Notes: a model not told the origin generated them from the sequence alone. Shown: positions 608 through 60,191, counted from the stretch's first letter. The stretch is DNA of 64,000 nt from Promethearchaeota archaeon (GCA_048938105.1 JBHLMN010000016.1:83199-147198); one strand, 5' to 3'. Program-made: numbers and translations.

Positions 608-734
608 AGAAGTAAATCAGTAGTTCTCAATTTAACAGATATTACAGTTTATATGACATTTTTTTTACATCAATATTCTTGGGAGTTTTTTAAGATCCTC
701 TTAATTTGATAGTGGAGCGAAGAAACAATTTTGA

Positions 735-3700
735 ATGAGGAATGATATGAAGATGTGGAAGATTCCTAAGGCAGAATTGTTTCAAAAATTAAAAATGTTT
801 ATGATTATCTTTCTATTTCTCATTTCATTTGTACTGAACACTCTCAATGCTAGTGCCCCCCTATTCTCTAATTGTATGTCCTCCTTAAATCGAAGTATGC
901 CTTTAGAAAAGGAGATTGATTCTCAAGAAATTCAGAAAAATCCATCTAATTTAGAAATTAACAATTTAATGGTTAATGAAGAACAAATACAATATTATGT
1001 AGAGCAGAGTACTCAGTTCAATATAAAAAATCATCAAATGAAAGAAATGGCCTCAAATTCGTACACTAATGTTTCTATTAAGTCAAAAGTGATAAATTCA
1101 TCATTTCGGATTTTTTCGAATGGTAATAATGGCAGCAATAGATGGCAAAATGATATTGAACCTGATTATGGGGATGTTAACGCATCTACAATTTTTTCGG
1201 AGAATATCAACTTCTTTCGCTTAAATTTTTCTGAAAATGTTGAGACCCCTGCTTCAGGAATAACTAATACAGATTTTCTTGTTTCATCAAATCCAGACAT
1301 TTTTAGTTATCCAACAATTATTTCCTTCGATTTCAGAATCCCATTTTTAACGTCAACTATCATAAATTCATCTCATACTTTGGGTTTAGAATTTAGGTTC
1401 AACAATGGTTCAATAACCTTCATTTTATCAGATTTTGGGGGGAACCTTGGAGATATTCTTGAAGAAAATGTTACACGACCAAACGGGTCTGATTATCTCT
1501 ATATCCTATGCAATGAAACACCACCCTTCAGTTGGAGACACATTTCACACAATATTACAAGATTAGTTAGTACCTACTTTACTCCAGAGGAGTACTACAA
1601 GTTTTCCTCTCTTGAAACTCTCTTCTGTTATATGATAACTTTCACCCCAGGTTACAAATTGACTCTAGACATAAACAACTTAGATTATTTTACCTTATTA
1701 TCTCCCTGTCCTCCAATTAATTACACAATTGGAGAAACGATGATTTTTACTAGTAATGGTTCATTATCTTATAATTCAATGTTGGGAAACTTCACTTTTA
1801 TTGCATATGAGGATTCTTCTTGGATTAATAATACATTAACATATTTAAAGGTAAATATTACACGAATAAAGAGCTTTAAAAGTTTTTCTTTTGCTAAAGA
1901 TTGGAATGAAACCAAAGTTCGAATAAATTTGTACGTTGACATCCCTGATATCATTGAAGCTGTAACTTCTAGTTTTATTAACATTATTCTTCCCTCAGAT
2001 TGGATTAATATCAATATTATTAATCAAAATATCAACTTTGAATTTACAAATCAAACTAGAATTCTGAATGAATACCTATTCGGAAACTTTTATCGTGCAG
2101 ACGTCTATGGAATACATTGGGGTATTATTGAAGCATGGTCACCAAATTATCTCACTAATATTGTAGTTCCCACTGATGTTAGCAGAAATGATGTTATCAA
2201 GGTTAGAGGTGATTTACATTATCCCTTATTAGGAAATATAAACTTGTATTATTTTAGTGAATCTTTCTTTTTTCACAAAAGTACACTTCCTATGATTAAT
2301 TCTACATTTATCTTTCCTGAAATAACAATAACTGATGAATTTCCAACTGGGATCTTACAATTTACTCTCAATTGGTCAAACTCATGGGAGTATGGTATTT
2401 ATGAAAAACTCGTTTATGTTCATGAGGAAGTGAGTTCTTACTCAAACATTCTATTTAAAACATCTCAGAATGTTAATATTTATCGATTCGAACCATTATT
2501 AGTAAATTTAAGTCTAACGAAAAATGGAAACAAATATTTTTCTAATTCAACATTCGTTTTCTTAATCAAAGGAAAAGAATGTCTTTCTTTTTCCCCAACA
2601 TCACACAATGATTTCATTCTCAATGTTTCTCATATTATTTGGGATCCTGGAGACTATACTTTAAGTGTCATTGCATCTGATGGCGATCTATTCTTTGCAA
2701 AGGATGTGATGAATTTGACAGTTAAACCAGCTTCAATTTTTTGGAGTTTTGAAAACTTACAAACAACTTTGTTAAAAAATGAGAGTATTTGTTTTCGACT
2801 CTATTCTTATATCCATCCTCAAGGAGAAGAATACTTCCAAACCTTATCTGGCCTCAAGATTAGGATTTGGATCAATGATACAGTAATTTCTAATTACGAA
2901 ACAAATTCAAAAGGATTTTCTGATATTGACTTCGATTTTAAATACTCGTCTTCTATGGAATTCCTTCAAGTCGCAGTAGAGGGAATGGTAGAGGGAGAAG
3001 TGTTTAAAATGCAAACACTACTATATTATATCTCAAATGAGACAACCGTAGATGGTGGAGACAGAGCTTATATGCATGAAATAATGAGATCACCTATTAA
3101 GGCAAATGAAACCTTTTTTATTTATTATAACATTGAATACTCAAACAATAATTCTAATTGGTTTGTTCCTATCGAATCATATACTGATTTAGTATTAGCC
3201 GCGTATATTTTACGAGATAATTATGTTATTGGCACCAGTATTGAAAATCACATGTTAATCTGGACACTAGAAGCGAATCAATCTATAAATGATATATTGG
3301 TAATTGAATTACCAAGCCCATCTGTATTAGTCATAAAGGAAGTGTTATCGAAAAAATTCAGAATTAAATTGGAAGCTTATTCCGAAATAACAGTTAATAA
3401 TTATTCAATTGAAATTGATCTTAAATTCTTAGGATTTCCCTTTACCAATATTTCTCTCTTAGATTCATTGAATCGCGATATAACTCATCTGTTTAAAATA
3501 ACCAGTTCAAGCTCAATTGTTTCGATATATCAACTTAATATAATAAGCGAGCTCAAAATGTCTTATTTTTTGAGAGGAGATCTTCAGGAAATTGAAATTA
3601 AAATTAGAAACCCTTTTCAGTCATCATATGCTTATAATGAAAGCATTCGGGGTAGTTGGGAAATCAAAACACCAATCAACTATTCTTATGTAGTTTTGTA

Positions 3701-4292
3701 CACAATATGGGATTTAGGATCTTGGGAATGTTATAATACTTCTCTTGAAACCTTTTCAAATGCATCAAGTGTTATTACGGCTTTCCTGCCTCTCCAAAGA
3801 TGGAACACTTCAATATCTATTCAATTAAGAATGAAATACTTCAATGATCTAATAATAGCTAGTCCGTTGCAAAATTTCACAATCAGTGACGATTTTGCAC
3901 CAGTATTAGATTATTCTATTGAGGCAAAGATTGATGTTATTCGAATACATGCCTTTGTTTACGAACCCGAAAGGGCTTCAGGTATCAAGAATGTCTCTTT
4001 AACATTGAAAGATCAGAGTAACACTGCTAATTCCATTTCCGTAAATCATTATGTTTTTGACATCCCATTTAAAACTATTAATTCCTATTTTATTATGATA
4101 ATTGTGTTTGATTGGGCTGGAAATGAGAGATCATCTGAATTTATAGATATTAAAGAAATGATTCCAGGTTCTTCTTCTCTATCAAGCTTGATTATGTCTC
4201 AATTTTTCTTTCCAACACTTTTTTCTATTGGAATAATGGGCGGTATTTTTATTGCTCGAATAATTAGGAAGAGGCGAACTTCAATTCTTTGA
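735..4292 (+). CDS. Large secreted, C-terminally membrane-anchored surface glycoprotein
   Basis: 1185 aa; N-terminal signal/TM segment (true start probably ~797); beta-rich; many N-x-S/T sequons; C-terminal TM followed by RKRR. Confidence 0.75.
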   Translation: MRNDMKMWKIPKAELFQKLKMFMIIFLFLISFVLNTLNASAPLFSNCMSSLNRSMPLEKEIDSQEIQKNPSNLEINNLMVNEEQIQYYVEQSTQFNIKNHQMKEMASNSYTNVSIKSKVINSSFRIFSNGNNGSNRWQNDIEPDYGDVNASTIFSENINFFRLNFSENVETPASGITNTDFLVSSNPDIFSYPTIISFDFRIPFLTSTIINSSHTLGLEFRFNNGSITFILSDFGGNLGDILEENVTRPNGSDYLYILCNETPPFSWRHISHNITRLVSTYFTPEEYYKFSSLETLFCYMITFTPGYKLTLDINNLDYFTLLSPCPPINYTIGETMIFTSNGSLSYNSMLGNFTFIAYEDSSWINNTLTYLKVNITRIKSFKSFSFAKDWNETKVRINLYVDIPDIIEAVTSSFINIILPSDWININIINQNINFEFTNQTRILNEYLFGNFYRADVYGIHWGIIEAWSPNYLTNIVVPTDVSRNDVIKVRGDLHYPLLGNINLYYFSESFFFHKSTLPMINSTFIFPEITITDEFPTGILQFTLNWSNSWEYGIYEKLVYVHEEVSSYSNILFKTSQNVNIYRFEPLLVNLSLTKNGNKYFSNSTFVFLIKGKECLSFSPTSHNDFILNVSHIIWDPGDYTLSVIASDGDLFFAKDVMNLTVKPASIFWSFENLQTTLLKNESICFRLYSYIHPQGEEYFQTLSGLKIRIWINDTVISNYETNSKGFSDIDFDFKYSSSMEFLQVAVEGMVEGEVFKMQTLLYYISNETTVDGGDRAYMHEIMRSPIKANETFFIYYNIEYSNNNSNWFVPIESYTDLVLAAYILRDNYVIGTSIENHMLIWTLEANQSINDILVIELPSPSVLVIKEVLSKKFRIKLEAYSEITVNNYSIEIDLKFLGFPFTNISLLDSLNRDITHLFKITSSSSIVSIYQLNIISELKMSYFLRGDLQEIEIKIRNPFQSSYAYNESIRGSWEIKTPINYSYVVLYTIWDLGSWECYNTSLETFSNASSVITAFLPLQRWNTSISIQLRMKYFNDLIIASPLQNFTISDDFAPVLDYSIEAKIDVIRIHAFVYEPERASGIKNVSLTLKDQSNTANSISVNHYVFDIPFKTINSYFIMIIVFDWAGNERSSEFIDIKEMIPGSSSLSSLIMSQFFFPTLFSIGIMGGIFIARIIRKRRTSIL

Positions 4293-26387: not shown

Positions 26388-27872
26388 CTAAGAATTATTG
26401 TGATCGGCTCTCCACGCTTCTTTGTACTTTTCTGCCATTGTTTCTAAGTCTAGTGTTATATTTTCCCTACAAAAGGTTCTTGATCTAATTCGAAAGAATG
26501 TTGGGTAATTGATACATTCTCCAACCAACAAAGCCTCCCCAATTTCTAAATCAGGAATCATTTTAAGTGTAGAACGATCAATACCTTCAGAAGTTCTTCC
26601 AATAAAATCCTGGTCATAGGGGTTTCTTATACGAAGAATTAAATTGGTATTACATTGAGAAAGAGCTGTTACAGATAGATTTACAGGACGTTGTGATATT
26701 AAACATAATGAAGCATAAAATTTCCTTCCTTCACGCGCAATTGTTTCTATAATCCGTTTTGAAATAGAGCGAGAGCCTTCTGGGCAGAATTGATGAGCTT
26801 CTTCAACCACAAACAAAGATGGGGGAATTTTACCTATTCTACGTTGATAATAAAAGTATTTCAGAAAATGTAATACAATAATGCTTCGACTTCGTTGATT
26901 ATGAATCTCTGATAAGTCCAAAATAATTATCTTACCAGGTTGAAAAAGGTCTGCAAGATTAGGACTAGTTTCTGTAGAAAACAGATATGTGCGTTGTAAA
27001 GAGTATAACCAGCCAATTAGTGCTTCTTTTGTGCGAACATTGATTTTCTCTGAAGTTTCAATTTTTTGAATGATATCCTGTAAACCATAAAGATTTCTAT
27101 TCTTTTGTCGAATATTAGAAATGATATTATCTAAAACTCTCGTTTGGACTACTGAAATTTCTGGAATGAACTCCGAAATTTCCCACGCTGATAATTCTGG
27201 GACTCCAATTGATATGAAAGAACCATTAATGACTTCAATCTTTGTATCTTCTGCCTTGGTTGGTAAGATGTTGGAATATTCCCCATGAGGATCTATGACA
27301 AGAACACTCATTTTTCCAGTTTTGTATAACTCTTCCAATAGAATAGATATAGCATATGATTTTCCTGCACCAGATATTGCTAATATTGCAATATGTTTCC
27401 GTAATAATCTGGAAAGATTTATCTTTATTTTGACATTATTTGAAGGAAGATCTCCCCAATATATCCCATTCTCATCAAGACCTAAAAACTTCGATATAAC
27501 TGATGCTGAAGCAACATATACCTTTGACCCAGGAGAGACAGGAAACTTCAATCGGGTTATTCTGCTGTTTTCGAAATTTATTTCTCCAAGCGGTTTTACA
27601 TTTACCAAAGTGCTTTCCCATTCTTTGATAGGAAAAATGGCTTCATAATCTCGTGATGCAATCTCATGAATGCTTGAGTCTAAAGTTTCATAATAAGCGT
27701 TACATTTCTTTATTCCCGTAATAATACCTAAAACTGTTTGATTTTTATTCTTCGGAATGGTCACAAATAGTCCTCTCTCAATCTGAGGATGATCATTCTT
27801 ATCGAGGATTAATTCTATATTCTCTAGACTTGGTGAGTCTGATGTAGTAACTACTGTTCCAATTGTAGTCAT
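26388..27872 (-). CDS. herA: HerA DNA translocase/helicase
   Basis: HAS barrel, Walker A AISGAGKS, Walker B VVEEAH, IAREGRKF, SQRP. Confidence 0.93.
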   Translation of the reverse strand: MTTIGTVVTTSDSPSLENIELILDKNDHPQIERGLFVTIPKNKNQTVLGIITGIKKCNAYYETLDSSIHEIASRDYEAIFPIKEWESTLVNVKPLGEINFENSRITRLKFPVSPGSKVYVASASVISKFLGLDENGIYWGDLPSNNVKIKINLSRLLRKHIAILAISGAGKSYAISILLEELYKTGKMSVLVIDPHGEYSNILPTKAEDTKIEVINGSFISIGVPELSAWEISEFIPEISVVQTRVLDNIISNIRQKNRNLYGLQDIIQKIETSEKINVRTKEALIGWLYSLQRTYLFSTETSPNLADLFQPGKIIILDLSEIHNQRSRSIIVLHFLKYFYYQRRIGKIPPSLFVVEEAHQFCPEGSRSISKRIIETIAREGRKFYASLCLISQRPVNLSVTALSQCNTNLILRIRNPYDQDFIGRTSEGIDRSTLKMIPDLEIGEALLVGECINYPTFFRIRSRTFCRENITLDLETMAEKYKEAWRADHNNS

Positions 27873-27893
27873 GGTAATCTCACTTATTGTAAT

Positions 27894-28985
27894 TCAAAAT
27901 TTCCAGGGGGCCCTTTTTCTACGGTAAAACCAAAAATCTGGAGTTGGATGTCGAATACGTATAAGTTGGAAAAGCGCATCTATTTCAGTTTCCTTTATTT
28001 TCGCTCGTGCATCTGCTTCGACGATAGGTGCAGGAATTCCATAATTCTTGTTATATTGAGAGACAGGTAAAATTGCCTCTGAGATGAAATTAATCTCCTT
28101 TATAAGATCAGGTTGATCTCTATTAATCGATTGGAATAATTCTATACGAAGAGGGATGTCAAAGGGTGCAGTCTTAAGATAATATGCATAAAGCGCAAAT
28201 TCCTGACTAAATTTCTTTGATATGTTAAACTGACGGTAATAAGCCATAGATCGAACGTTGGGTTCTAAAAGGTAGTAAAACAGATCCATGTCACGACTTC
28301 TATTAATTATTCTACGGTAATCTAAAGAAAGAATATCAGCCAATTCTTCAGCAACGAAGGGAATAACTTGACCAAGGAATTTTGTGAACAAATTTAATCT
28401 ACTATCTTTAACAATCCAAGCCATTTTAATTCCCTGTTTTCTTGCAAGTAAGACTAATCTTGAAAGAATAGATAAATAACTCTGGTAATAATTCAGAATT
28501 TTTTGGTTCTTTGTAAGAGGTTTTCTTATAACAGGACTTCCATCTAAAAGAAGGATATCTAATTTTTTGGTACTCTGCTCAAGGACTTGAGATGCTATTT
28601 GCAATTCAGTAATCGCTCGGCGAATCGCTCCCATATTCTCGAAATCTATTGAAGATAAACCTACATCAGATACAGTGATCTCTAAGGGAGGGGTTCTAGC
28701 AGGATAATAGGTAGTTTTTTGAATTCCTTCTGCCGTGTAAGTCGAAAATACAGCGATGGCACGAAAAGCAAAGATATCAAAGCCAATAAACAAACGTGAA
28801 GCATATCCCCCATCAATGCCTCCCATTGTTAATCCCGAAATGTCTTGAGGGAATAGTTGAGTAAACATTCGGTTATCATAAATCAAATTATGTAGATGTG
28901 GAGGTAGATCTGAGAGATCAGGGTTTAAAGAACGCAAAATTTTACAAAATTCAATTTTTTGCGAATTTATTCTTGTTATATCCAT
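27894..28985 (-). CDS. nurA: NurA 5'-3' nuclease
   Basis: GIDGG, LLDGS, VKDS, YGIPAPIVEAD; adjacent to herA. Confidence 0.9.
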   Translation of the reverse strand: MDITRINSQKIEFCKILRSLNPDLSDLPPHLHNLIYDNRMFTQLFPQDISGLTMGGIDGGYASRLFIGFDIFAFRAIAVFSTYTAEGIQKTTYYPARTPPLEITVSDVGLSSIDFENMGAIRRAITELQIASQVLEQSTKKLDILLLDGSPVIRKPLTKNQKILNYYQSYLSILSRLVLLARKQGIKMAWIVKDSRLNLFTKFLGQVIPFVAEELADILSLDYRRIINRSRDMDLFYYLLEPNVRSMAYYRQFNISKKFSQEFALYAYYLKTAPFDIPLRIELFQSINRDQPDLIKEINFISEAILPVSQYNKNYGIPAPIVEADARAKIKETEIDALFQLIRIRHPTPDFWFYRRKRAPWKF

Positions 28986-39810: not shown

Positions 39811-41691
39811 TTATTCATCATTTTCTTCTAGAAGTGGACGGCTGGTAGTAACAAATTGTTCTAGAACTGGCTGAATCATAGTAAAGGGGACTCCTGTGGT
39901 TGCAATAAGACTACTAACCAAGATCATATTTAGATGATCCATTTCTTCAATAGTAAGGTCTTTATCTGAGAGGAGAATATTGATAAATTGTGAAACCAAG
40001 AGAGGAAATTCCGGGTCACTAATCGGTATTTTCTTTAAGACAGCCTTGATGTTATTAATAAAAGAGATTCCTATTTCAATAAATGTATTGTTTAAAGGGA
40101 TTTCAAAGAAATCAAAATTGTATAGGAGTTCATCGACCTCAGCTGAAGAGGCATCAAATTCAGAAACGAAAATTGCTTCCTTCGTAATAAATTCCAAATG
40201 AAGGACCAATTGTTTCTGTTTAAAAACATTATCACTTCTAAGTAATCGTTTAACAGTTAATCTAACGGAATGATAATATTCCTCATCACAATGATCACCT
40301 AGGTAATTGATAGCCTGAAGAAGAGTTAGAATAGCACGACCAAAATCCTTTATAGGTGTTTGATGGCCATGGAGAACATCTTGTCTGAAATCTCGTGCTA
40401 TAATCATAATGGATAATTGAAGTAGATTTTCGAAGAAATGTTCGAAATTTTTGTCCTCTGTTTGAATTAATTCGTCAAGAGTTTCTTCTAGCTCTGAGAT
40501 TTCCTCTTGATCAATGGTATAGCGCTTCATTACTACATCCAGATCTTCAACATTCTTCTGTTGAATTCCAGCTGGATATTCTCTCTTATGAATGTACACT
40601 GCTTTCAAAATCGGAACTATTGCAAGATTTTGCCTTTCAGGGTCATTTTGTTTTTCATAAATAGCTTCAACTAATTCAATAGCCTTTGATAGGTGATAGA
40701 AAACAAAATCTTCGCCAAGAAGATACTCTAATGCCAAATTAAAGATTGCTCCGAACCATTTCACATGAAAATTTTTTGAAAATGAAAAGCTTGTCAAGAA
40801 TATATTCTCTATGTGCCACATTTCACGAGTAATTAGAGACGGATTAATGTAATACTTTTGGAAAATGTAATGTTTAAGTTTTCGGGAGGGTCTATAGTCT
40901 ATAGAATCTTCCTGTAAGACCATAGTGGGTAACCATACTGGAACGAGTGAAATTGTATAGTTGAACGCTTTAGCAAACTCACTAAGATCTTTGATCTTTA
41001 TTTCACCTTTTTGGAAAGGAATATCAAGAATGGGGGGAGCAATATGATCAGATTCTTCGAAATGAAGTTCAATATTGTAGAAATCTACCAATGGATTACA
41101 TAACCCTCTTTTCATCATCTCAACGTTGACAAAAATGTCTTTGAGTGATAAAAGGGCGACTTGTGAAATTTTTTTAAGAAATGTAACTAGCTCTTCCTGT
41201 TTAAAACTTTCAGGAGGGACAATAGAAGCTAATTGGGTGAAAAAATCCAGACTAAAAACTAAAGAATTACGTAATTGAACCTCAAGACCACGCTGCCGTT
41301 GAACAGAGTGTAAAATTTCGTGAAAAATCAATCCAGTGAGCCCATTTCGATGAACAGGTTTAAGTAAGGGAGAGTTTTTTTCTAATTGAATGAAAACGAA
41401 TTCCTTATCCTTGTAACCATAAGAAAAAGATGTTTGAAAGTGATCGTCGAAGATACGTTGAAGATCATCAACCTCTTTTTGCGATAAGCCTGAATTTAAG
41501 ATAAATGAATTTACTTCATTAGAATTGTCAATGTCCGAAAAAATCAATGTCAAGTCTATGATTGGCTCGCAGAGAGTTCTTAACATTGGAGAGTGTAAGA
41601 TTTCTCTTAAATCATGTTCTATTCCCTTGAAAAAGTCTAGAAGGACAATTTTAAGGGAATCATTCAATTTTTCCATTAGGACTGCTTCCAT
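39811..41691 (-). CDS. Hypothetical protein with HExxH (zincin-like) motif
   Basis: 626 aa; GLIFHEILHSV followed by KDIFVN; helical acidic C-terminal region. Confidence 0.7.
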   Translation of the reverse strand: MEAVLMEKLNDSLKIVLLDFFKGIEHDLREILHSPMLRTLCEPIIDLTLIFSDIDNSNEVNSFILNSGLSQKEVDDLQRIFDDHFQTSFSYGYKDKEFVFIQLEKNSPLLKPVHRNGLTGLIFHEILHSVQRQRGLEVQLRNSLVFSLDFFTQLASIVPPESFKQEELVTFLKKISQVALLSLKDIFVNVEMMKRGLCNPLVDFYNIELHFEESDHIAPPILDIPFQKGEIKIKDLSEFAKAFNYTISLVPVWLPTMVLQEDSIDYRPSRKLKHYIFQKYYINPSLITREMWHIENIFLTSFSFSKNFHVKWFGAIFNLALEYLLGEDFVFYHLSKAIELVEAIYEKQNDPERQNLAIVPILKAVYIHKREYPAGIQQKNVEDLDVVMKRYTIDQEEISELEETLDELIQTEDKNFEHFFENLLQLSIMIIARDFRQDVLHGHQTPIKDFGRAILTLLQAINYLGDHCDEEYYHSVRLTVKRLLRSDNVFKQKQLVLHLEFITKEAIFVSEFDASSAEVDELLYNFDFFEIPLNNTFIEIGISFINNIKAVLKKIPISDPEFPLLVSQFINILLSDKDLTIEEMDHLNMILVSSLIATTGVPFTMIQPVLEQFVTTSRPLLEENDE

Positions 41692-41889
41692 GAAAAACAG
41701 ATTTCGATCTAGAATACCCTTTATTGTAACATTAAAAACAAATTCCCATCCAAGATTATTATCTGAAATTGAAGTAGCAAATATTTATAAAGAGTTTATA
41801 AAGAATTGATGATAAATAGTTGAAATTCAGCAATTCTATAAAATTAAGCGTTTTCAGAATTGTATTCTTCATAAAAGGTGAGTAGTGAG

Positions 41890-43434
41890 ATGGCCCACCA
41901 GCGAAAGACGTGGAAACGGTTTTTAAACATTATTCTATCTCGACTTCCTTCCTGCATCGAAAAATATTCACCTAAAGACCAAGTCCTTCTGATTGATTTT
42001 TTGGAGATCCTTCAACACTATGAAGAAGCTGACTTTAATAGAAATAAACTCTTTAATAGGATTAATAAATTCAATCAGAAATATTTTGGGTCTGATCAAT
42101 ATGAAAAAACTCCTTTTTTGTGGTTTGCTTACTCATATTATTCAAATGCAAACTTAATACTTAGTGTTGCAAGGTTCCATGCTGATGATTTTTATGAATT
42201 TTTGGTAAAACTCCTTCGTGATCACAATGAGATAAAAGGATGCTTCAAACTCATATGTGAAAATACTCCATTACTAGATCTCGCCTGGGAACAATTGCAA
42301 TATTTAAGTGCAAAACTAGTTCCCTTAACTTCTGATCATTTACACTGCCTTGAAACTATATATTCATATGTTACAGAGGCAGGGATTAACTCTCTTAATC
42401 AGAATCGATTGAAAGATGCAATTTCAAGTCGAACCAGAAGTATCAAAATTATTCAAGATTTTCCAGATCTTTTGACTCTTTTAGAAGCCCGCTGGAGATT
42501 ATTATTTTATCCTCCTGCATTTGAAATAGAAACACTTTACTTTCAGTTTCAAATTAATGAATCAATACCTTTTTTAGAGATTATTGATATTAAAAATGCG
42601 AAGAACACTACATTTTGCAGTAGTACAATTTTTAATGTAAGAGGACTTAAGAACACATACATAGGATTAATTGCAATTCCCTCCCAATTAATAGAAAGAC
42701 TGAAATCTTATCTTAAAATCTGTGAGCAAAAAGGAAAATTGATTCTAAAGGACATGTCTCAGATCATCAATATCCAGATGAGTTATTCATTATCCAATTA
42801 TAAAACTGATAAAGGATGGCATAACCTTACAGAGACGGAATGGAAACGGCTCTCTCGCCCAGTTAAAACTTCTCGCCCTCGAAAAAGACGAATAAAACCT
42901 TCATCTTTCTTTCTAACTTCTCCTTTTAATAATGATTTTAATTATCAACAACATCCTAAGGCTGATGAACTTCTCAGAATATATTGTAAATCTCAACGAA
43001 CTTTTACATACGGTGAGCTGCCTTTTGGTAATACAGGAAATCAATCCACATTGAGTTTCTCCAAGAAAGAGATAGGAGTTTTGAGAGATTTATTTGAGTC
43101 TAAAGTGCTTCAAGTGGATTTAGTTTTAAATAAACTAAATCAGGAGTTTTCATGGGATCTTTTTTGGATAAGAATTCCAAAATTAATACCTTTAGAACAG
43201 CTTTCTCGCATATTGGAGCTTCTACCTTGGACCAGAATATATTATACGAGGTCAGATATTCATTTATTGACCTTTCTGACATCGAAACTAGCCCAATGGA
43301 TGAGTAGTGATTTAGAATGGATAGTTATCCCAGTAATAAGTCTACATTATCCAATTACTCCTTCTTTAGACTGGTATGACCTTGAAACCAATCAATGGAT
43401 TACCCCTTATATGTTAAAATCACCATTGTATTAA
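41890..43434 (+). CDS. ~515-aa putative Lrp/AsnC-like (wHTH+RAM, internally duplicated) protein, paralogue 1
   Basis: Long ORF homologous to 58119-59663; SD GGTGAG places the start at ATG 41890; the fold call is inference. Confidence 0.75.
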   Translation: MAHQRKTWKRFLNIILSRLPSCIEKYSPKDQVLLIDFLEILQHYEEADFNRNKLFNRINKFNQKYFGSDQYEKTPFLWFAYSYYSNANLILSVARFHADDFYEFLVKLLRDHNEIKGCFKLICENTPLLDLAWEQLQYLSAKLVPLTSDHLHCLETIYSYVTEAGINSLNQNRLKDAISSRTRSIKIIQDFPDLLTLLEARWRLLFYPPAFEIETLYFQFQINESIPFLEIIDIKNAKNTTFCSSTIFNVRGLKNTYIGLIAIPSQLIERLKSYLKICEQKGKLILKDMSQIINIQMSYSLSNYKTDKGWHNLTETEWKRLSRPVKTSRPRKRRIKPSSFFLTSPFNNDFNYQQHPKADELLRIYCKSQRTFTYGELPFGNTGNQSTLSFSKKEIGVLRDLFESKVLQVDLVLNKLNQEFSWDLFWIRIPKLIPLEQLSRILELLPWTRIYYTRSDIHLLTFLTSKLAQWMSSDLEWIVIPVISLHYPITPSLDWYDLETNQWITPYMLKSPLY

Positions 43435-43465
43435 GTAAATAGAAGCTGAAGCTCAACATAAGCAA

Positions 43466-43508
43466 GAAAAGAAAAAAGAGGATGAGGGGAAATGGATAGC
43501 ATCTCCCC
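43466..43508 (-). terminator. Hairpin plus U-tract ending the micropeptide transcript
   Basis: Minus-strand stem GGGGAGATG/CATTTCCCC followed by TCATCCTCTTTTTTCTTTT. Confidence 0.55.
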
Positions 43509-43537
43509 GATTTGGTTGAAATAGAATGTTTAAACAA

Positions 43538-43573
43538 TTATGGAAAAGGAGGAGTCGTACCTGGGGGCATCAT
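43538..43573 (-). CDS. Micropeptide MMPPGTTPPFP
   Basis: SD GAGGT 4-7 nt upstream; downstream hairpin and U-tract; positional homologue at 59773-59811. Confidence 0.55.
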   Translation of the reverse strand: MMPPGTTPPFP

Positions 43574-44021
43574 TTAGACCTCATCCCTCCACTCCAATAG
43601 TTCAATATAACATCCTAACTATTCTCTAGATAAAATCTCCGTGATAGATACTACGATCGTTCTTTTAATAACACCTAAGAATTTTAAAAAAGATATTTAG
43701 AAAAGCAGTCTTGATTTACCACGAATTAATATATCTTATTTCTATTATAATCTCCTGACTTCTAATAAATTTATAGAAGCCTCTTAATAATAAAAACAAT
43801 CTAAAATTCATGATTGAAAGCAAAAATATTGAAAAAACTCCTTTAAAGGTCAGAAAGAGCTAGTGAACTATAACAGATGAAGTGGGTGATTTTCTACAAA
43901 TTCTCGGGATCTAGAAATACTCCAATAATGGAAAAAGGGGTTTTTTCCCATTTATTCCACACCTGAGGAAATAGGGTTTCCAACTAACTTAGTTAACCCC
44001 ATATAACGCATCCAAGAGAAT

Positions 44022-46169
44022 CTATTTGATTGGATCAAAAACTAAATTCTGATAGGAATCGTGTAATCTTTTTTGTAAAGGAAGATTCTGGAGTTTATCT
44101 TGGTTCATAAGGGATTGCAATTCGACTGAAAAATTATTTGTCTTTAGGAGAGAAATTTGACCATTAATCGAAATGATACAACGTCGTTCATCAGGTTTTG
44201 CTTTTAAAAGGTTGCGAAATTGTTCATACTCATTCTTGGTTAAGCCAAGTAAGTTGGATATGACATAAGGATCAAATTTTGTAAAGAAAACAGTCACAAC
44301 TCCTGCGTTAGTTAGTATAGGCTGTTTAACTATCGGATCAGTGCCAATAAAAATCATGGATATATCGTAAGCTCTTAAAGTCCAAGGGCCTTTAGCGATC
44401 ATCGTCTCTGAAGTCCTAGCTCTGGGACTCTTAGCTGGAATGAGTTTTTGAATCTCATCTAGGATGAAAATATTCTTAGGAAGAGTTTCTTCCTTGAAAG
44501 GTGATCGAAAGCTTCTAACGAAATAGTAAATATATTGCAGCACTACATTTAAGAAAATTTGCCTTCCACTTTGATCTTCCATGGATTCAAAGGCAGAAAG
44601 GTCAATAATAGCGTTATGTTCTAATAAATCAGATATTTCATAAGTTGTTTTGTGAACGGTGAAACATCTGCCCGTATTGCCAAATAAAAGCTTTTCAATG
44701 CAATTCATGATACCAGCAGTTGTATTTTCTAGATAGGCACCTTTCATTCCTAATTTATCAGGTATTTTAAGCCACTTGAGCAATGTTTGAAAATCACCTT
44801 GATCTTTTACTGTCTGAATAACCGCAAGGTGAAGGAGACGGCGCATTTGGGGTGAAACTGCATCCATGTCTTCAAAAATGTGTTCAAGTATAGATACTAC
44901 GAATTGGATATGATCATTTAGTGGTATAATAGATTCTCCTGCTTCATTTTTAGGTATTTGGAAAATATTTATACCCCAAGGAAATTCAGTTGAGCCAGGC
45001 TTCAAATATATGAAGGTATTACAAAAGGATTGGACTGGAGCTAAATATTCACCTTTTGGATCAAAAATGAGAAATCGAACATTCTTTTGATGAAATTCCT
45101 TAATTAATCCATAAATAAAACGGCTTTTTCCCTCACCGGTCATACCAAACACTACCATATGCCTACTGAGATCTTTACCATCAATCAACAAGGGAATATC
45201 CGAGGTTTTACCACTAACGATTGGAATGCCAAGATTAATAGCTCGTTGAGGTGAAGTTTCGCTTATACCCGTGGATAAGGTGTAATCTGTTTTGTTTGAA
45301 ACAAGACTATAACCTTCGTGAGAGAATTGTCTTTGAGGAGGAGTAATGAAGTTCATCAAAGAATATCCATCTAGGATAATTGGTGAAATCAATTTTCGTT
45401 TAGAACAGAGCCTCCTGAAAGAAGAAAAACGCCGCCAGAAAGTTGGATAAAATCGTACTTTGAATCCATTGGACATAAATAAGACAGATAAGCGATCAAG
45501 TTTGGATCGTAAAGATTCTTGGCTTTTTTCTACCACTAATATACGGGGTGAAAACTCAAAACAACCTGTTTCTTCCATAATGTTTATTTTTTGAGGATGA
45601 AAACGACGTTCTACTTTTCCTTGTTGGATATCAAATCGTACATGAACCATTCGATTATCTTGCTCATTTTGAGTTTGAGATTCTTTGGGAAGTTCTACAG
45701 ACTTGAAAACAAGCTGAATAAATGCAAATTGAGGAGAATCAGTTGAAATTTCAAGGATAGTGTCTATAAAACTCTCACTAGTCGTGAAATATCTGTCAGT
45801 TTTATCTTTTAATCCAAGAATTCCACCACAATAATATTTGGAGCCATCAGAACTCACCTGAAATTCAGTCTGTAGTAATTCTAGAAGAACATGGATAGGA
45901 GATTCACCTATCTTATGAAAATCAGGATGGAGTCCTAATGCGGCAGCAAACTGTTGGATAGTAGCTATCCCTTTTTCTCCCCCTTTCTTACGGAGGTGTC
46001 CATATTCTATAGGAACCATATTAATCCATACAGATTTGGGATCAAATACTGCATATTCCAAGGAAAAGGCATTCTTAGCATTCTGAAATACTTTGACGCT
46101 AGTTTTATCTACATTCAAAGGAATATAGCGGAAGTTGAAAGCTGGTACGGATTGAGTCATGAGAATCAC
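44022..46169 (-). CDS. HerA/VirB4/FtsK-family ATPase (DUF87)
   Basis: RHMVVFGMTGEGKS, LIFDPKGEY, Walker B FILDE. Confidence 0.85.
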   Translation of the reverse strand: MILMTQSVPAFNFRYIPLNVDKTSVKVFQNAKNAFSLEYAVFDPKSVWINMVPIEYGHLRKKGGEKGIATIQQFAAALGLHPDFHKIGESPIHVLLELLQTEFQVSSDGSKYYCGGILGLKDKTDRYFTTSESFIDTILEISTDSPQFAFIQLVFKSVELPKESQTQNEQDNRMVHVRFDIQQGKVERRFHPQKINIMEETGCFEFSPRILVVEKSQESLRSKLDRLSVLFMSNGFKVRFYPTFWRRFSSFRRLCSKRKLISPIILDGYSLMNFITPPQRQFSHEGYSLVSNKTDYTLSTGISETSPQRAINLGIPIVSGKTSDIPLLIDGKDLSRHMVVFGMTGEGKSRFIYGLIKEFHQKNVRFLIFDPKGEYLAPVQSFCNTFIYLKPGSTEFPWGINIFQIPKNEAGESIIPLNDHIQFVVSILEHIFEDMDAVSPQMRRLLHLAVIQTVKDQGDFQTLLKWLKIPDKLGMKGAYLENTTAGIMNCIEKLLFGNTGRCFTVHKTTYEISDLLEHNAIIDLSAFESMEDQSGRQIFLNVVLQYIYYFVRSFRSPFKEETLPKNIFILDEIQKLIPAKSPRARTSETMIAKGPWTLRAYDISMIFIGTDPIVKQPILTNAGVVTVFFTKFDPYVISNLLGLTKNEYEQFRNLLKAKPDERRCIISINGQISLLKTNNFSVELQSLMNQDKLQNLPLQKRLHDSYQNLVFDPIK

Positions 46170-58118: not shown

Positions 58119-59663
58119 GTGGTTGATCGCCATAGAAGGCTAAAACAATTTATTAGGATAGTTGTAGATCAGCTCCCAGCATACATCAAAGAATATCATG
58201 TGTCAGATCGAAAACTCCTTGAAAAATTTCAAAGCACACTTCAACACTTTGAAGAAGCTGACTATGATAGAGATCGCCTCTCTAAACGGTTCACCGGCTA
58301 TCGAATGGGATATAGAGACACAGAAGAATATCTAAATATACAATTTTTGTGGTTTACAATCGAATACTTCAAGGACGCAAATCAACTACTAAGAGTAGCA
58401 GAGTTTCACGGGGGAGATTTTTATAGATATTTAGTGAAATGTCTGCGTGGTGTACCCAGTACACCAGGAGTATTTCAGTTAATTCAAAAAAAAACAGCAC
58501 TAACAGATTTATCATGGGAAAAGTTACAGAATTTAGCCTCCAAACTTACAATCCCACTAACAAGTGAAGAACTCCTTGTTATTAAGACAGTGTATTCATT
58601 CATCAAAGAGGAAAGAAAAAGAAAGAAAGGACTGAGTCTCCTCAATCCAGATCACTTACGAACTCATATTGTGAGACAAATAAGTCCAAGGTGGACATAT
58701 ACACGTCTTTCCCGTTTATTTGCACACATAGATGCCCGATGGGACTTATGGTTTTATCCTCCAGCTTTTGGGATGGAACGCTATTATTGCTATTTTCAAG
58801 TCGATGAATCCACCTCATTATTCGATATTATAAATTTCAAGGATCAGGCAAACACAGCCTTAAGTACCAGTGATGTGTATCAAATTAGAGGATATCACAA
58901 CACCTTTCTTGGGAGAATAGTAACTTCAACTCAAGAGATAAAACGATTACGATCATACCTCGAAGAACATGAAAACCTCATAGTACATCAATTATCAGAA
59001 ATTACCAATACTTATACAAGTTGGTCATTAACGCAATATCGAGCAGAAAGAGGCTGGGAAAGACTCTCTAATGATGAAATGAGACGCTTGATTCAACAAT
59101 TGAATACATCCCAGACATGTGAAGAAGAAGGAGATTTTTTCCTTTCACGAGAATGTGGAAAACAATGGTTTTACAAACAAATGTCTGATCCACACAAAAT
59201 AATTGCCCTTCTTTGCAAATATTTCAAATTTTATTCATTTAATGAGCTTCCATGGCGTACACCACGAGATCTGTTAAGGTTCACCCATGAAGAATTATAT
59301 CTTTTAAAGGAGTTATATCGTCAAAAAGTAGCTCATGTTGGGTTCCAAGTAAGACGATTAATAGATGAGTTCGCGATTGACACCTATTGGGTAAGTCTGC
59401 CAAAACGACCAATTGAACAGCTCTCCTGCCTACTAAGATATCTTCCTTTTTGTCAAATCTACTACACAAAAATACATGTCCATCTATGGACTCGATTACC
59501 TGCTGATTTTGCCCATCAGCTTAGAACCATTCCAGAATGGACAGTTGTTCCAATAATTCAAAACCATCAACCACAAAATCTTGAGGATGATTGGTATGAT
59601 CCTATAACATATGAATGGAAGACTCCCATATTGCTAGAGAATCATGGCGAGGATCTAGGATAA
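58119..59663 (+). CDS. ~515-aa putative Lrp/AsnC-like protein, paralogue 2
   Basis: Shares blocks with 41890-43434 (LQHxEEAD, VAxFHxxDFY, PLTS, ARWxLxFYPPAF, IYYT) and the same AAAGGTGAGTAGTGAG leader. Confidence 0.75.
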   Translation: MVDRHRRLKQFIRIVVDQLPAYIKEYHVSDRKLLEKFQSTLQHFEEADYDRDRLSKRFTGYRMGYRDTEEYLNIQFLWFTIEYFKDANQLLRVAEFHGGDFYRYLVKCLRGVPSTPGVFQLIQKKTALTDLSWEKLQNLASKLTIPLTSEELLVIKTVYSFIKEERKRKKGLSLLNPDHLRTHIVRQISPRWTYTRLSRLFAHIDARWDLWFYPPAFGMERYYCYFQVDESTSLFDIINFKDQANTALSTSDVYQIRGYHNTFLGRIVTSTQEIKRLRSYLEEHENLIVHQLSEITNTYTSWSLTQYRAERGWERLSNDEMRRLIQQLNTSQTCEEEGDFFLSRECGKQWFYKQMSDPHKIIALLCKYFKFYSFNELPWRTPRDLLRFTHEELYLLKELYRQKVAHVGFQVRRLIDEFAIDTYWVSLPKRPIEQLSCLLRYLPFCQIYYTKIHVHLWTRLPADFAHQLRTIPEWTVVPIIQNHQPQNLEDDWYDPITYEWKTPILLENHGEDLG

Positions 59664-59697: not shown

Positions 59698-59747
59698 AAA
59701 AAAAAGTGGGAGGAACGGAGAAATTTCGATGATATCGAAATTTCGCC
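59698..59747 (-). terminator. Perfect 11-bp hairpin plus U-tract ending the second micropeptide transcript
   Basis: GAAATTTCGAT-N3-ATCGAAATTTC at 59720-59744; T8 tract on the minus strand. Confidence 0.6.
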
Positions 59748-59772
59748 TTAATATCTTAATACTTTCACAAGT

Positions 59773-59811
59773 TTAATGGCCAGGTGGATTGCCATCATTA
59801 GGGGGGGACAC
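59773..59811 (-). CDS. Micropeptide (M)SPPNDGNPPGH, GTG start
   Basis: SD GAGGT 8 nt upstream; same position and PP..PP pattern as 43538-43573. Confidence 0.5.
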   Translation of the reverse strand: MSPPNDGNPPGH

Positions 59812-60191
59812 TTCATTCAACCTCTTACTTCTCTTCTCCTACTCCTGTTTTAACAATCTAATATTTTTTGAAAATATAACAAGCGTTTTTACCTTTAAAA
59901 ATACCCAAAAAATTTCTAGAGAAATTTTGAAAGGCATGGTTTATTACGCTCATACCTAGATTAATATATTTCTATAAAAACACCCCAAAAATCCCCCACC
60001 CCTTGATAAGATAATAATAAGCACCCTAGTTTATTCTATCTTAGTTACTTGTTAGTAAATTTTCCAAGTCATTATAGGGTGATAAAGAACTACCGCTCTA
60101 CTACTAACCCAGAGGATGACTATCGTATGAAGAACTCCACAATTCGAATTGATAATCGAGATTACTTGTATGGGAAAAGTGCTGAAACACT

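Follow-up and report, generated by a model that had tools for sequence, protein, structure and literature searches.

In the present study, a module of two genes, one encoding a large protein with two Lrp-like units (the double-Lrp protein) and the other, in convergent orientation, a micropeptide, was found to be real, conserved and undescribed; its function may be suggested from the sequences. We consider it probable (roughly 0.6) that the micropeptide is the cognate ligand of the neighbouring double-Lrp protein and controls what is predicted to be a DNA-binding regulator. Literature searches found no description of a peptide/double-Lrp pair, in agreement with the preliminary description of this DNA, the author of which knew of no such system in Asgard archaea. 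We are aware of neither an archaeal peptide signal that is encoded by a gene and has a defined receptor nor an Lrp-fold protein that reads a peptide.

The cassette in the window and its promoter element

The window, i.e., the whole 64,000-nt stretch of DNA that was analysed, contains two large genes on the plus strand, copy 1 (41890-43434) and copy 2 (58119-59663, GTG start), which encode 514 aa each and correspond to the two paralogous genes of approximately 515 aa noted in the preliminary description. The two proteins are 36% identical over their entire length (E 3e-115) and are the only members of the family in this 5.85-Mb genome. Copy 1 is preceded by an SD sequence (41876-41881, plus strand), and most homologues have a similar one. 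The convergent minus-strand micro-ORF with the SD sequence GAGGT, part of a unit claimed to follow the stop of each large gene after ~35-40 bp, was found at both copies, and the translations given for them, MMPPGTTPPFP and (M)SPPNDGNPPGH, were right. The micro-ORF of copy 1 (43573-43538) has an ATG start and 11 codons plus stop, with a Met-Met-Pro-Pro start and a Pro/Gly/Thr tail; that of copy 2 (59811-59773) has a GTG start and 12 codons beginning with Met-Ser-Pro-Pro, a frame that agrees with the family pattern. GAGGT (43582-43578 and 59824-59820, minus strand) is separated from the start codon by 4-7 nt in both. In copy 2, an out-of-frame ATG lies 4 nt 5' of the start codon; the 22-codon ORF that begins with it (59747-59815, minus strand) is not conserved in the family.

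Each micro-ORF is followed by a putative terminator on the minus strand. At copy 1 (43472-43508) this consists of a 9-bp hairpin with one G-U pair (43486-43508), a pyrimidine run and a U6 tract (43477-43472), and at copy 2 (59698-59744) of a perfect 11-bp hairpin (59720-59744) and a U8 tract (59705-59698); the U-tract ends 35-38 nt from the stop codon of the large gene in both copies (38 nt in copy 1). The strong hairpin described earlier is present at both copies but is not general in the family, in which the pyrimidine run and a U6 tract within ~70 nt 3' of the peptide gene (43/50) are the recurrent parts. Folding of the whole RNA was no better than that of shuffled sequences for copy 1 (z -0.85) and gave z -2.0 for copy 2. 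Pairing between the 5' and 3' parts of the RNA that would hide the SD sequence was rejected as compositional, since cognate duplexes (-10.5 kcal/mol) were comparable to non-cognate ones (-10.7 kcal/mol, p 0.67), and a search of Rfam gave no match.

The AT-rich upstream segment of the preliminary description is indeed conserved, but its nature is that of an 18-nt promoter element, in which a TWGGGWG box directly abuts a TATA box, often in two or three tandem copies; the GGAGT start motif, also proposed there, was recognized by eye at some loci but not at all of them. Upstream of the copy-1 micro-ORF, a proximal element (43604-43621, minus strand, 11 bits) lies at -48 from the start codon, the modal position in the family, and a distal one at 43664-43681 (minus strand, 15.6 bits). 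In copy 2, the proximal element is degenerate, and tandem elements are located at 59894-59911, ~59973-59990 and 60014-60031 (minus strand; 17.5 and 17.2 bits, the middle copy being assigned by pattern). Across the family, the element was detected at 12 bits or more upstream of 42/46 peptide genes, mostly 46-60 nt before the Pro-Pro codons, and a strong SD sequence precedes 39/50. Together with the U-tract, these features suggest that the peptide gene is a transcription unit of its own.

Two or three copies of the element are present before 26 of the 46 peptide genes, and it almost never precedes a large gene (1/59). This asymmetry is compatible with the peptide being an output, i.e., with a double-Lrp protein that regulates the micro-gene and a peptide that acts on another target, such as a protein that binds Pro-rich motifs. 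We regard this as quite improbable, considering that peptides with one target in common would be expected to be conserved, as opposed to the 48 tails that track 50 proteins, and that the element is common to unrelated core genes. Although rare genome-wide, it precedes two such genes at comparable spacing in 21/21 and 17/19 loci of the genus; because this position is conserved across the genus, it represents a real promoter class, and its role as a private operator of the cassette was rejected. A conserved genus-wide promoter class is a by-product of this study. The two core genes are a 1185-aa gene (735-4292, probably secreted; element at 676-693, plus strand) and a 197-aa gene (element at G000:C6 ~200057-200074, minus strand), with loci L134-L173. 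Other candidates in this genome, named by eye, include an encapsulin-ferritin-like 77-aa gene, a small GTPase and roadblock-like genes. The element-bearing genes possibly form a regulon or a TFB-specific promoter class; four TFB paralogues are encoded in the genome (contigs C31, C38, C52 and C56 hold TFB and family-5 matches), and recognition of the element by one of them is a guess.

Regarding the surroundings of copy 1, a 626-aa protein without a family match is encoded divergently (39811-41691, minus strand) and may be a regulated gene, and a 715-aa HerA/VirB4-type ATPase (44022-46169, minus strand; DUF87, E 3.5e-16) lies upstream of the peptide gene. This position between the 626-aa gene and the ATPase is fixed at the 8 loci of the copy-1 clade. 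The similarity of the ATPase to CedD (E 6e-14) is far under the cut-off. The ATPase stands alone and its N-terminal 320 aa have no assignment; a separate NurA-HerA pair is located at 26388-28985 in the window.

Recurrence and pairing across the genus

We covered 21 genomes of one Hodarchaeota genus, namely, this genome and 20 others, the relatives being labelled Candidatus Hodarchaeota or Heimdallarchaeota. The large-protein family is present in 20/20 of the others, a single genome having as many as 10 matches; in the other families of the class, only weak partial matches in one genus were obtained; a profile search of 1.84 billion representatives yielded 193 proteins. No M(x)PP gene was found in the g5 loci, which are distant homologues of ~496 aa in another family.

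The recurrence of the module beyond two copies, as the preliminary description had anticipated, was borne out when the opposite strand was scanned for up to 400 nt behind homologues: a convergent M(x)PP micro-ORF was present in 50 of the 66 loci with an intact 3' end, which are kin and not independent. Since the same scan behind 2306 other long ORFs of this genome gave 45 hits (2.0%), or 10 (0.4%) with an SD sequence, the linkage is far above chance. Held-out homologues that were 23-34% identical to anything used earlier had the micro-ORF in 4/6 informative loci, and peptide genes are spread over nearly every supported clade of the protein tree (a quick version). The other 16 loci comprise 3 with a re-oriented peptide gene, 2 with a contig edge within 160 nt, 9 from peptide-less clades and 2 without a peptide gene.

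The fixed peptide-less clades contain 9 proteins (L020, L047, L048 and L051; L050, L052, L055, L056 and L059), one clade lying before an acyl-CoA ligase-like gene and the other being flanked by a DnaJ-like gene and a small GTPase (all named by eye). Further homologues without a nearby peptide gene are L016, L026, L101 and L124. All of these proteins retain most of the conserved residues, and those of the two clades may recognize either peptides supplied in trans or a different ligand. Among RRNPPA systems, too, some receptors lack a peptide gene.

These peptide-less genes bear on the possibility of a toxin-antitoxin-like addiction cassette, in which the large protein would be harmful and neutralized by the peptide. 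Multiple copies, varying neighbours and a cassette-like insertion are compatible with such a cassette, as are intact peptide genes beside broken or remnant large genes (the second copy of L044 and L058). Obligate pairing is, however, contradicted by at least 11 intact large genes that lack a peptide gene despite sufficient flank; PADLOC, NCBIfam and IMG/VR gave no match, the fold is that of a regulator, and the copy-1 clade shows synteny and vertical inheritance. Therefore, we consider addiction very unlikely. Broken or remnant large genes still flanked by a peptide gene were located at L044:2065-2365 (the second copy), L058 and G005:C314:8377-8532. Complete peptide genes with a promoter and U-tract and no visible large gene were also observed, one at L102:2702 (plus strand) and one in L103 near the contig end; one of these orphans is beside a scaffold gap and the other at a contig end, and the sole large gene detected in the L102 genome has no peptide gene.

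Except in the copy-1 clade, the neighbours of the cassette vary widely, which gives it the likeness of a self-contained cassette, and no common target gene was found among the neighbours of the loci. Cassettes cluster in the chromosomal region of the 1185-aa gene (G009:C1, G011:C3, G020:C5, G002:C88, G006:C150 and G001:C16), which suggests a hotspot and not a virus; a viral origin was rejected on the basis of one IMG/VR query without a match, and one metagenome scan gave none.

The micro-ORF is 9-16 codons long and encodes no hydrophobic core. Counted from Pro-Pro, the length is 9-10 codons in 44/50 and 9-11 in 48/50; all three stop codons are used (TAA 34, TGA 9 and TAG 7), and third codon positions are 76% A/T, against 75% G/C in the first and 71% G/C in the second. 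The narrow range of lengths, the use of all three stop codons, the A/T bias of third positions and the SD sequence indicate that the micro-ORF is selected as a peptide, as the preliminary description had suggested; pairwise synonymous counts on peptide pairs offered too few sites to decide. The motif on which that argument had been based fared less well. PP-x3-4-PP occurs in just 11/53 distinct peptides; the conserved feature is instead a Pro-Pro head after Met, Met-Met or Met-Ser, i.e., M(x)PP, in front of a tail rich in Gly and Pro (28% Gly, 20% Pro and 9% Asp).

An invariant Pro-Pro start and a usually convergent geometry might point to a translation sensor or antisense control, in which aIF5A-dependent stalling at Pro-Pro would determine whether transcription terminates or continues as antisense RNA into the large gene; the preliminary description had listed a polyproline sensor among its options. 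A bias at the nucleotide level also agrees with this: 35/50 loci use CCC for the first Pro (43565-43567 on the minus strand of the window in copy 1), compared with 15% genome-wide, and this excess possibly reflects pairing with the G-rich leader. On the other hand, PPG or PPP occurs in just 18/53 peptides, the peptide gene has its own terminator, the next gene is on the opposite strand, and covarying 5'-3' RNA pairing was absent (p 0.67). A regulated gene downstream on the same transcript, which defines an attenuator leader peptide, was not found, the U-tract lying within ~70 nt in 43/50. Moreover, the pairing survives re-orientation and the diversity of the tails would be left unexplained, such that we regard a sensor of this type as highly improbable.

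Pairing between each large protein and its own peptide, as the preliminary description had proposed, was substantiated by strict linkage and by the co-variation of the peptide gene with the protein. Of the 50 peptides, 48 are distinct, and the more alike two proteins are, the more alike are their peptides (Mantel r 0.24, 0/2000 permutations), a trend that linkage by itself would partly produce. Peptides of sister proteins remain related also where the peptide gene has changed to the strand of the large gene, or where the large gene is inverted; the re-oriented pairs are L010, with the peptide gene upstream, and L043/L045, with both genes on the same strand. This retention of pairing after re-orientation points to a trans-acting product. 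The large gene at L010:252-1915 is inverted relative to its flanks in comparison with L023, in two related genomes and beside a 23S rRNA-like sequence, and the difference is either a real inversion or an assembly artefact. A sliding partial correlation for specificity residues gave no clear peak (maximum r 0.18 at residues 346-375).

The double-Lrp protein and its predicted ligand

The AlphaFold2 model of the large protein, which was built from 63 sequences, has a pLDDT of 93 and a pTM of 0.90. With domain limits taken from the secondary structure of this model, copy 1 is predicted to consist of a helical bundle (1-147), wHTH1 (148-200), RAM1 (201-310), a basic linker, and a degenerate wHTH2 with RAM2 (346-514). 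In Foldseek, the best match for residues 148-514 is the siroheme decarboxylase NirDL, with which they share the tandem Lrp/AsnC fold (E 5.6e-6; superposition with Z 12.8, VIA, and rmsd 5.1 over 275 aligned residues at 11% identity), and the Atlas neighbours are uncharacterised archaeal double-Lrp clusters with HTH_24/HTH_AsnC (TM 0.5-0.66). Thus, the Lrp/AsnC-like character assigned to the protein in the preliminary description holds on the predicted model, as a helical bundle plus a tandem, NirDL-like wHTH-RAM fold. At the sequence level, the protein is too diverged for Lrp/AsnC membership: Pfam HTH, HTH_AsnC-type and AsnC_trans_reg profiles matched 0/63 members at E 0.1, and searches of Pfam, NCBIfam, PADLOC and PDB sequences gave no match. 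A TPR receptor was ruled out because the model is wholly accounted for by the 147-aa bundle and two alpha/beta Lrp units, which leave no room for a superhelix of 5-9 TPR repeats. In the fold search with the bundle, the best Z was 7.7 to designed bundles and Foldseek gave E >=0.6, with no TPR protein prominent.

In Lrp/AsnC proteins, the RAM domain is the ligand-binding part and the wHTH domain the DNA-binding part, and the known effectors are amino acids or small molecules rather than a gene-encoded peptide. The first HTH segment of the family has a mean net charge of +4.6, being basic in 95% of members, and no operator was identified. The most conserved polar and aromatic residues (Y26, R51, Y71, F76, W78, E134 and Q137) are in the helical bundle, which is a candidate pocket for Pro-Pro.

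Considering that the top structural match is an enzyme of the same fold and that a conserved head with a variable tail recalls precursor peptides, the protein might also be a RiPP-like enzyme, with a cavity between the two RAM domains in which the peptide would be converted to a small natural product. The invariant residues are E134, Y304 and W503, and no conserved catalytic His/Arg set is apparent in the RAM part, in which no His or Arg is invariant. The tails have no conserved modifiable residue, the neighbours share no protease, transporter or tailoring gene, and transcription is separate and convergent, with the basic HTH retained. An enzyme of this type is improbable.

The cognate-ligand reading is favoured by the linkage (50/66 vs 2%), the held-out loci (4/6) and the diversified codes that track the protein, by the Lrp/AsnC fold, the selection on the peptide, the basic first HTH and a product that, judging from re-oriented pairs, probably acts in trans and, indirectly, by the signal-peptide-bearing forms that adjoin a second double-Lrp family (family B, described below). 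Points counted against it are the polar peptides that lack an export signal, an enzyme (NirDL) as the closest solved fold, the 0/63 result for Pfam HTH, peptide-less homologues, a shared promoter element and the lack of a common target gene. On the cognate-ligand reading, the micro-gene would be transcribed alone from its own promoter, with its SD sequence and U-tract, and its product would be a leaderless peptide of 9-16 residues, in which the Pro-Pro head is constant and the Gly/Pro tail varies. This peptide may then bind the adjoining double-Lrp protein, the head serving as a common anchor and the tail as a specificity code, and binding would switch the DNA binding of the protein and, hence, the expression of near or distant genes. 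X-Pro-Pro heads resist common aminopeptidases and, thus, would suit a stable signal.

A second family and comparison with known systems

A genome scan for Pro-rich small genes revealed a 52-codon gene arranged head-to-head with a 496-aa double-Lrp protein on contig C14 of this genome (L196:2847-3005, plus strand, and L196:1244-2734, minus strand, respectively), followed by 124-aa and 146-aa genes. This family B occurs in 19/20 genus genomes, with the small gene in 24/30 loci; its profile gave one weak match outside the genus at the phylum level. The small genes, which encode 28 distinct propeptides, have 43-56 codons, a basic N-region, a hydrophobic core and a tail of 9-15 residues that starts with Asp-Pro or Pro-Pro, and a G-x-A-type site is present in 13/19 of those scored. 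Their layout resembles that of secreted pro-pheromones, with predicted mature tails, and the hydrophobic part may be either cleaved or retained as an anchor. The tails are closer to the M(x)PP peptides of the first family (family A) than composition-matched shuffles are (36.8 vs 32.4 +/- 0.9), and the promoter element of family A peptide genes was found before 0/28 family B genes. Since the protein profiles are only weakly alike (HHalign probability 2%, E 0.022), the analogy rests on architecture and peptide likeness. Still, one lineage appears to have twice coupled a double-Lrp protein to a Pro-rich decapeptide, with and without an export signal.

The genome also has 31 matches to family-5 peptide-binding ABC (solute-binding) proteins, which makes peptide uptake possible. 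On account of family B and these matches, export and re-import of the family A peptide as a leaderless cell-to-cell signal, similar to RopB/SIP, is somewhat favoured over an internal role; we offer it as a tentative possibility, and a peptide that is active solely inside the cell appears rather unlikely. It may perhaps be, although we hold this with limited confidence, that Hodarchaeota have expanded peptide cell-to-cell channels on tandem Lrp receptors, in leaderless and signal-peptide forms, as an independent archaeal quorum sensing of the RRNPPA kind. This lineage has been proposed as the closest to eukaryotes. In nature, the cassette occurs as more than 50 cognate pairs, in which a soluble, well-predicted protein is matched with a synthesisable 9-16-mer; therefore, the binding of cognate and swapped peptides is testable without culturing the organism, and if such binding were observed, direct tests of peptide communication in Asgard archaea would become feasible.

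In comparison with Lrp/AsnC (feast/famine) regulators, the Asgard protein shares the order of a wHTH followed by RAM units (two here, by fold) and a basic HTH, and differs in the fusion of two units with a 147-aa bundle that has no significant structural match, and in the lack of a Pfam AsnC match. NirDL (PDB 4ch7, 4czc) has the same tandem Lrp-like topology over residues 148-514, whereas the Asgard protein is 11% identical to it, has an extra N-terminal domain and has no recurring haem-pathway neighbour that would suggest a haem-synthesis context.

The receptors of RRNPPA and LCP systems form their peptide pocket from 5-9 TPR or TPR-like repeats (PMC9765709). Two-gene receptor-peptide cassettes in multiple copies are shared with RRNPPA systems, namely, group III Rgg/SHP, Rap-Phr, PlcR-PapR and AimR-AimP, and some of these, those of group III Rgg/SHP, are also convergent (PMC9765709, PMC13361665). 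The layout of a signal peptide and mature tail is shared by family B only, and the M(x)PP family lacks the TPR superhelix, the secretion signal and sequence homology. RRNPPA/LCP systems are characterized by a neighbouring small ORF that follows an SD sequence and encodes a cognate peptide of variable sequence, and such an ORF was found here (50/66 loci, 48 distinct peptides). The cassette would, thus, work in the manner of these systems without being a member, TPR repeats being absent from the predicted model.

The closest parallel is with RopB/SIP and other LCPs of Firmicutes, in which an ultrasmall SD-led ORF without a signal sequence also adjoins a cytoplasmic regulator, the cognate codes are diversified, the genes are missed by annotation and leader-bearing sister systems exist (PMC10518010). 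RopB has a C-terminal TPR domain in place of the tandem Lrp fold predicted for the Asgard protein, and LCPs are 8-9 hydrophobic residues encoded mostly divergently from the receptor, in contrast to the polar, Pro/Gly-rich and convergent Asgard peptides (PMC10518010). RopB/LCP systems are bacterial, with export and signalling demonstrated (PMC10518010), whereas the Asgard pair is archaeal and its signalling would be a possibility. Nevertheless, the relationship between Rgg/SHP and RopB/LCP in Firmicutes, with and without an export signal, is paralleled by that between family B and the M(x)PP family (PMC10518010, PMC13361665).
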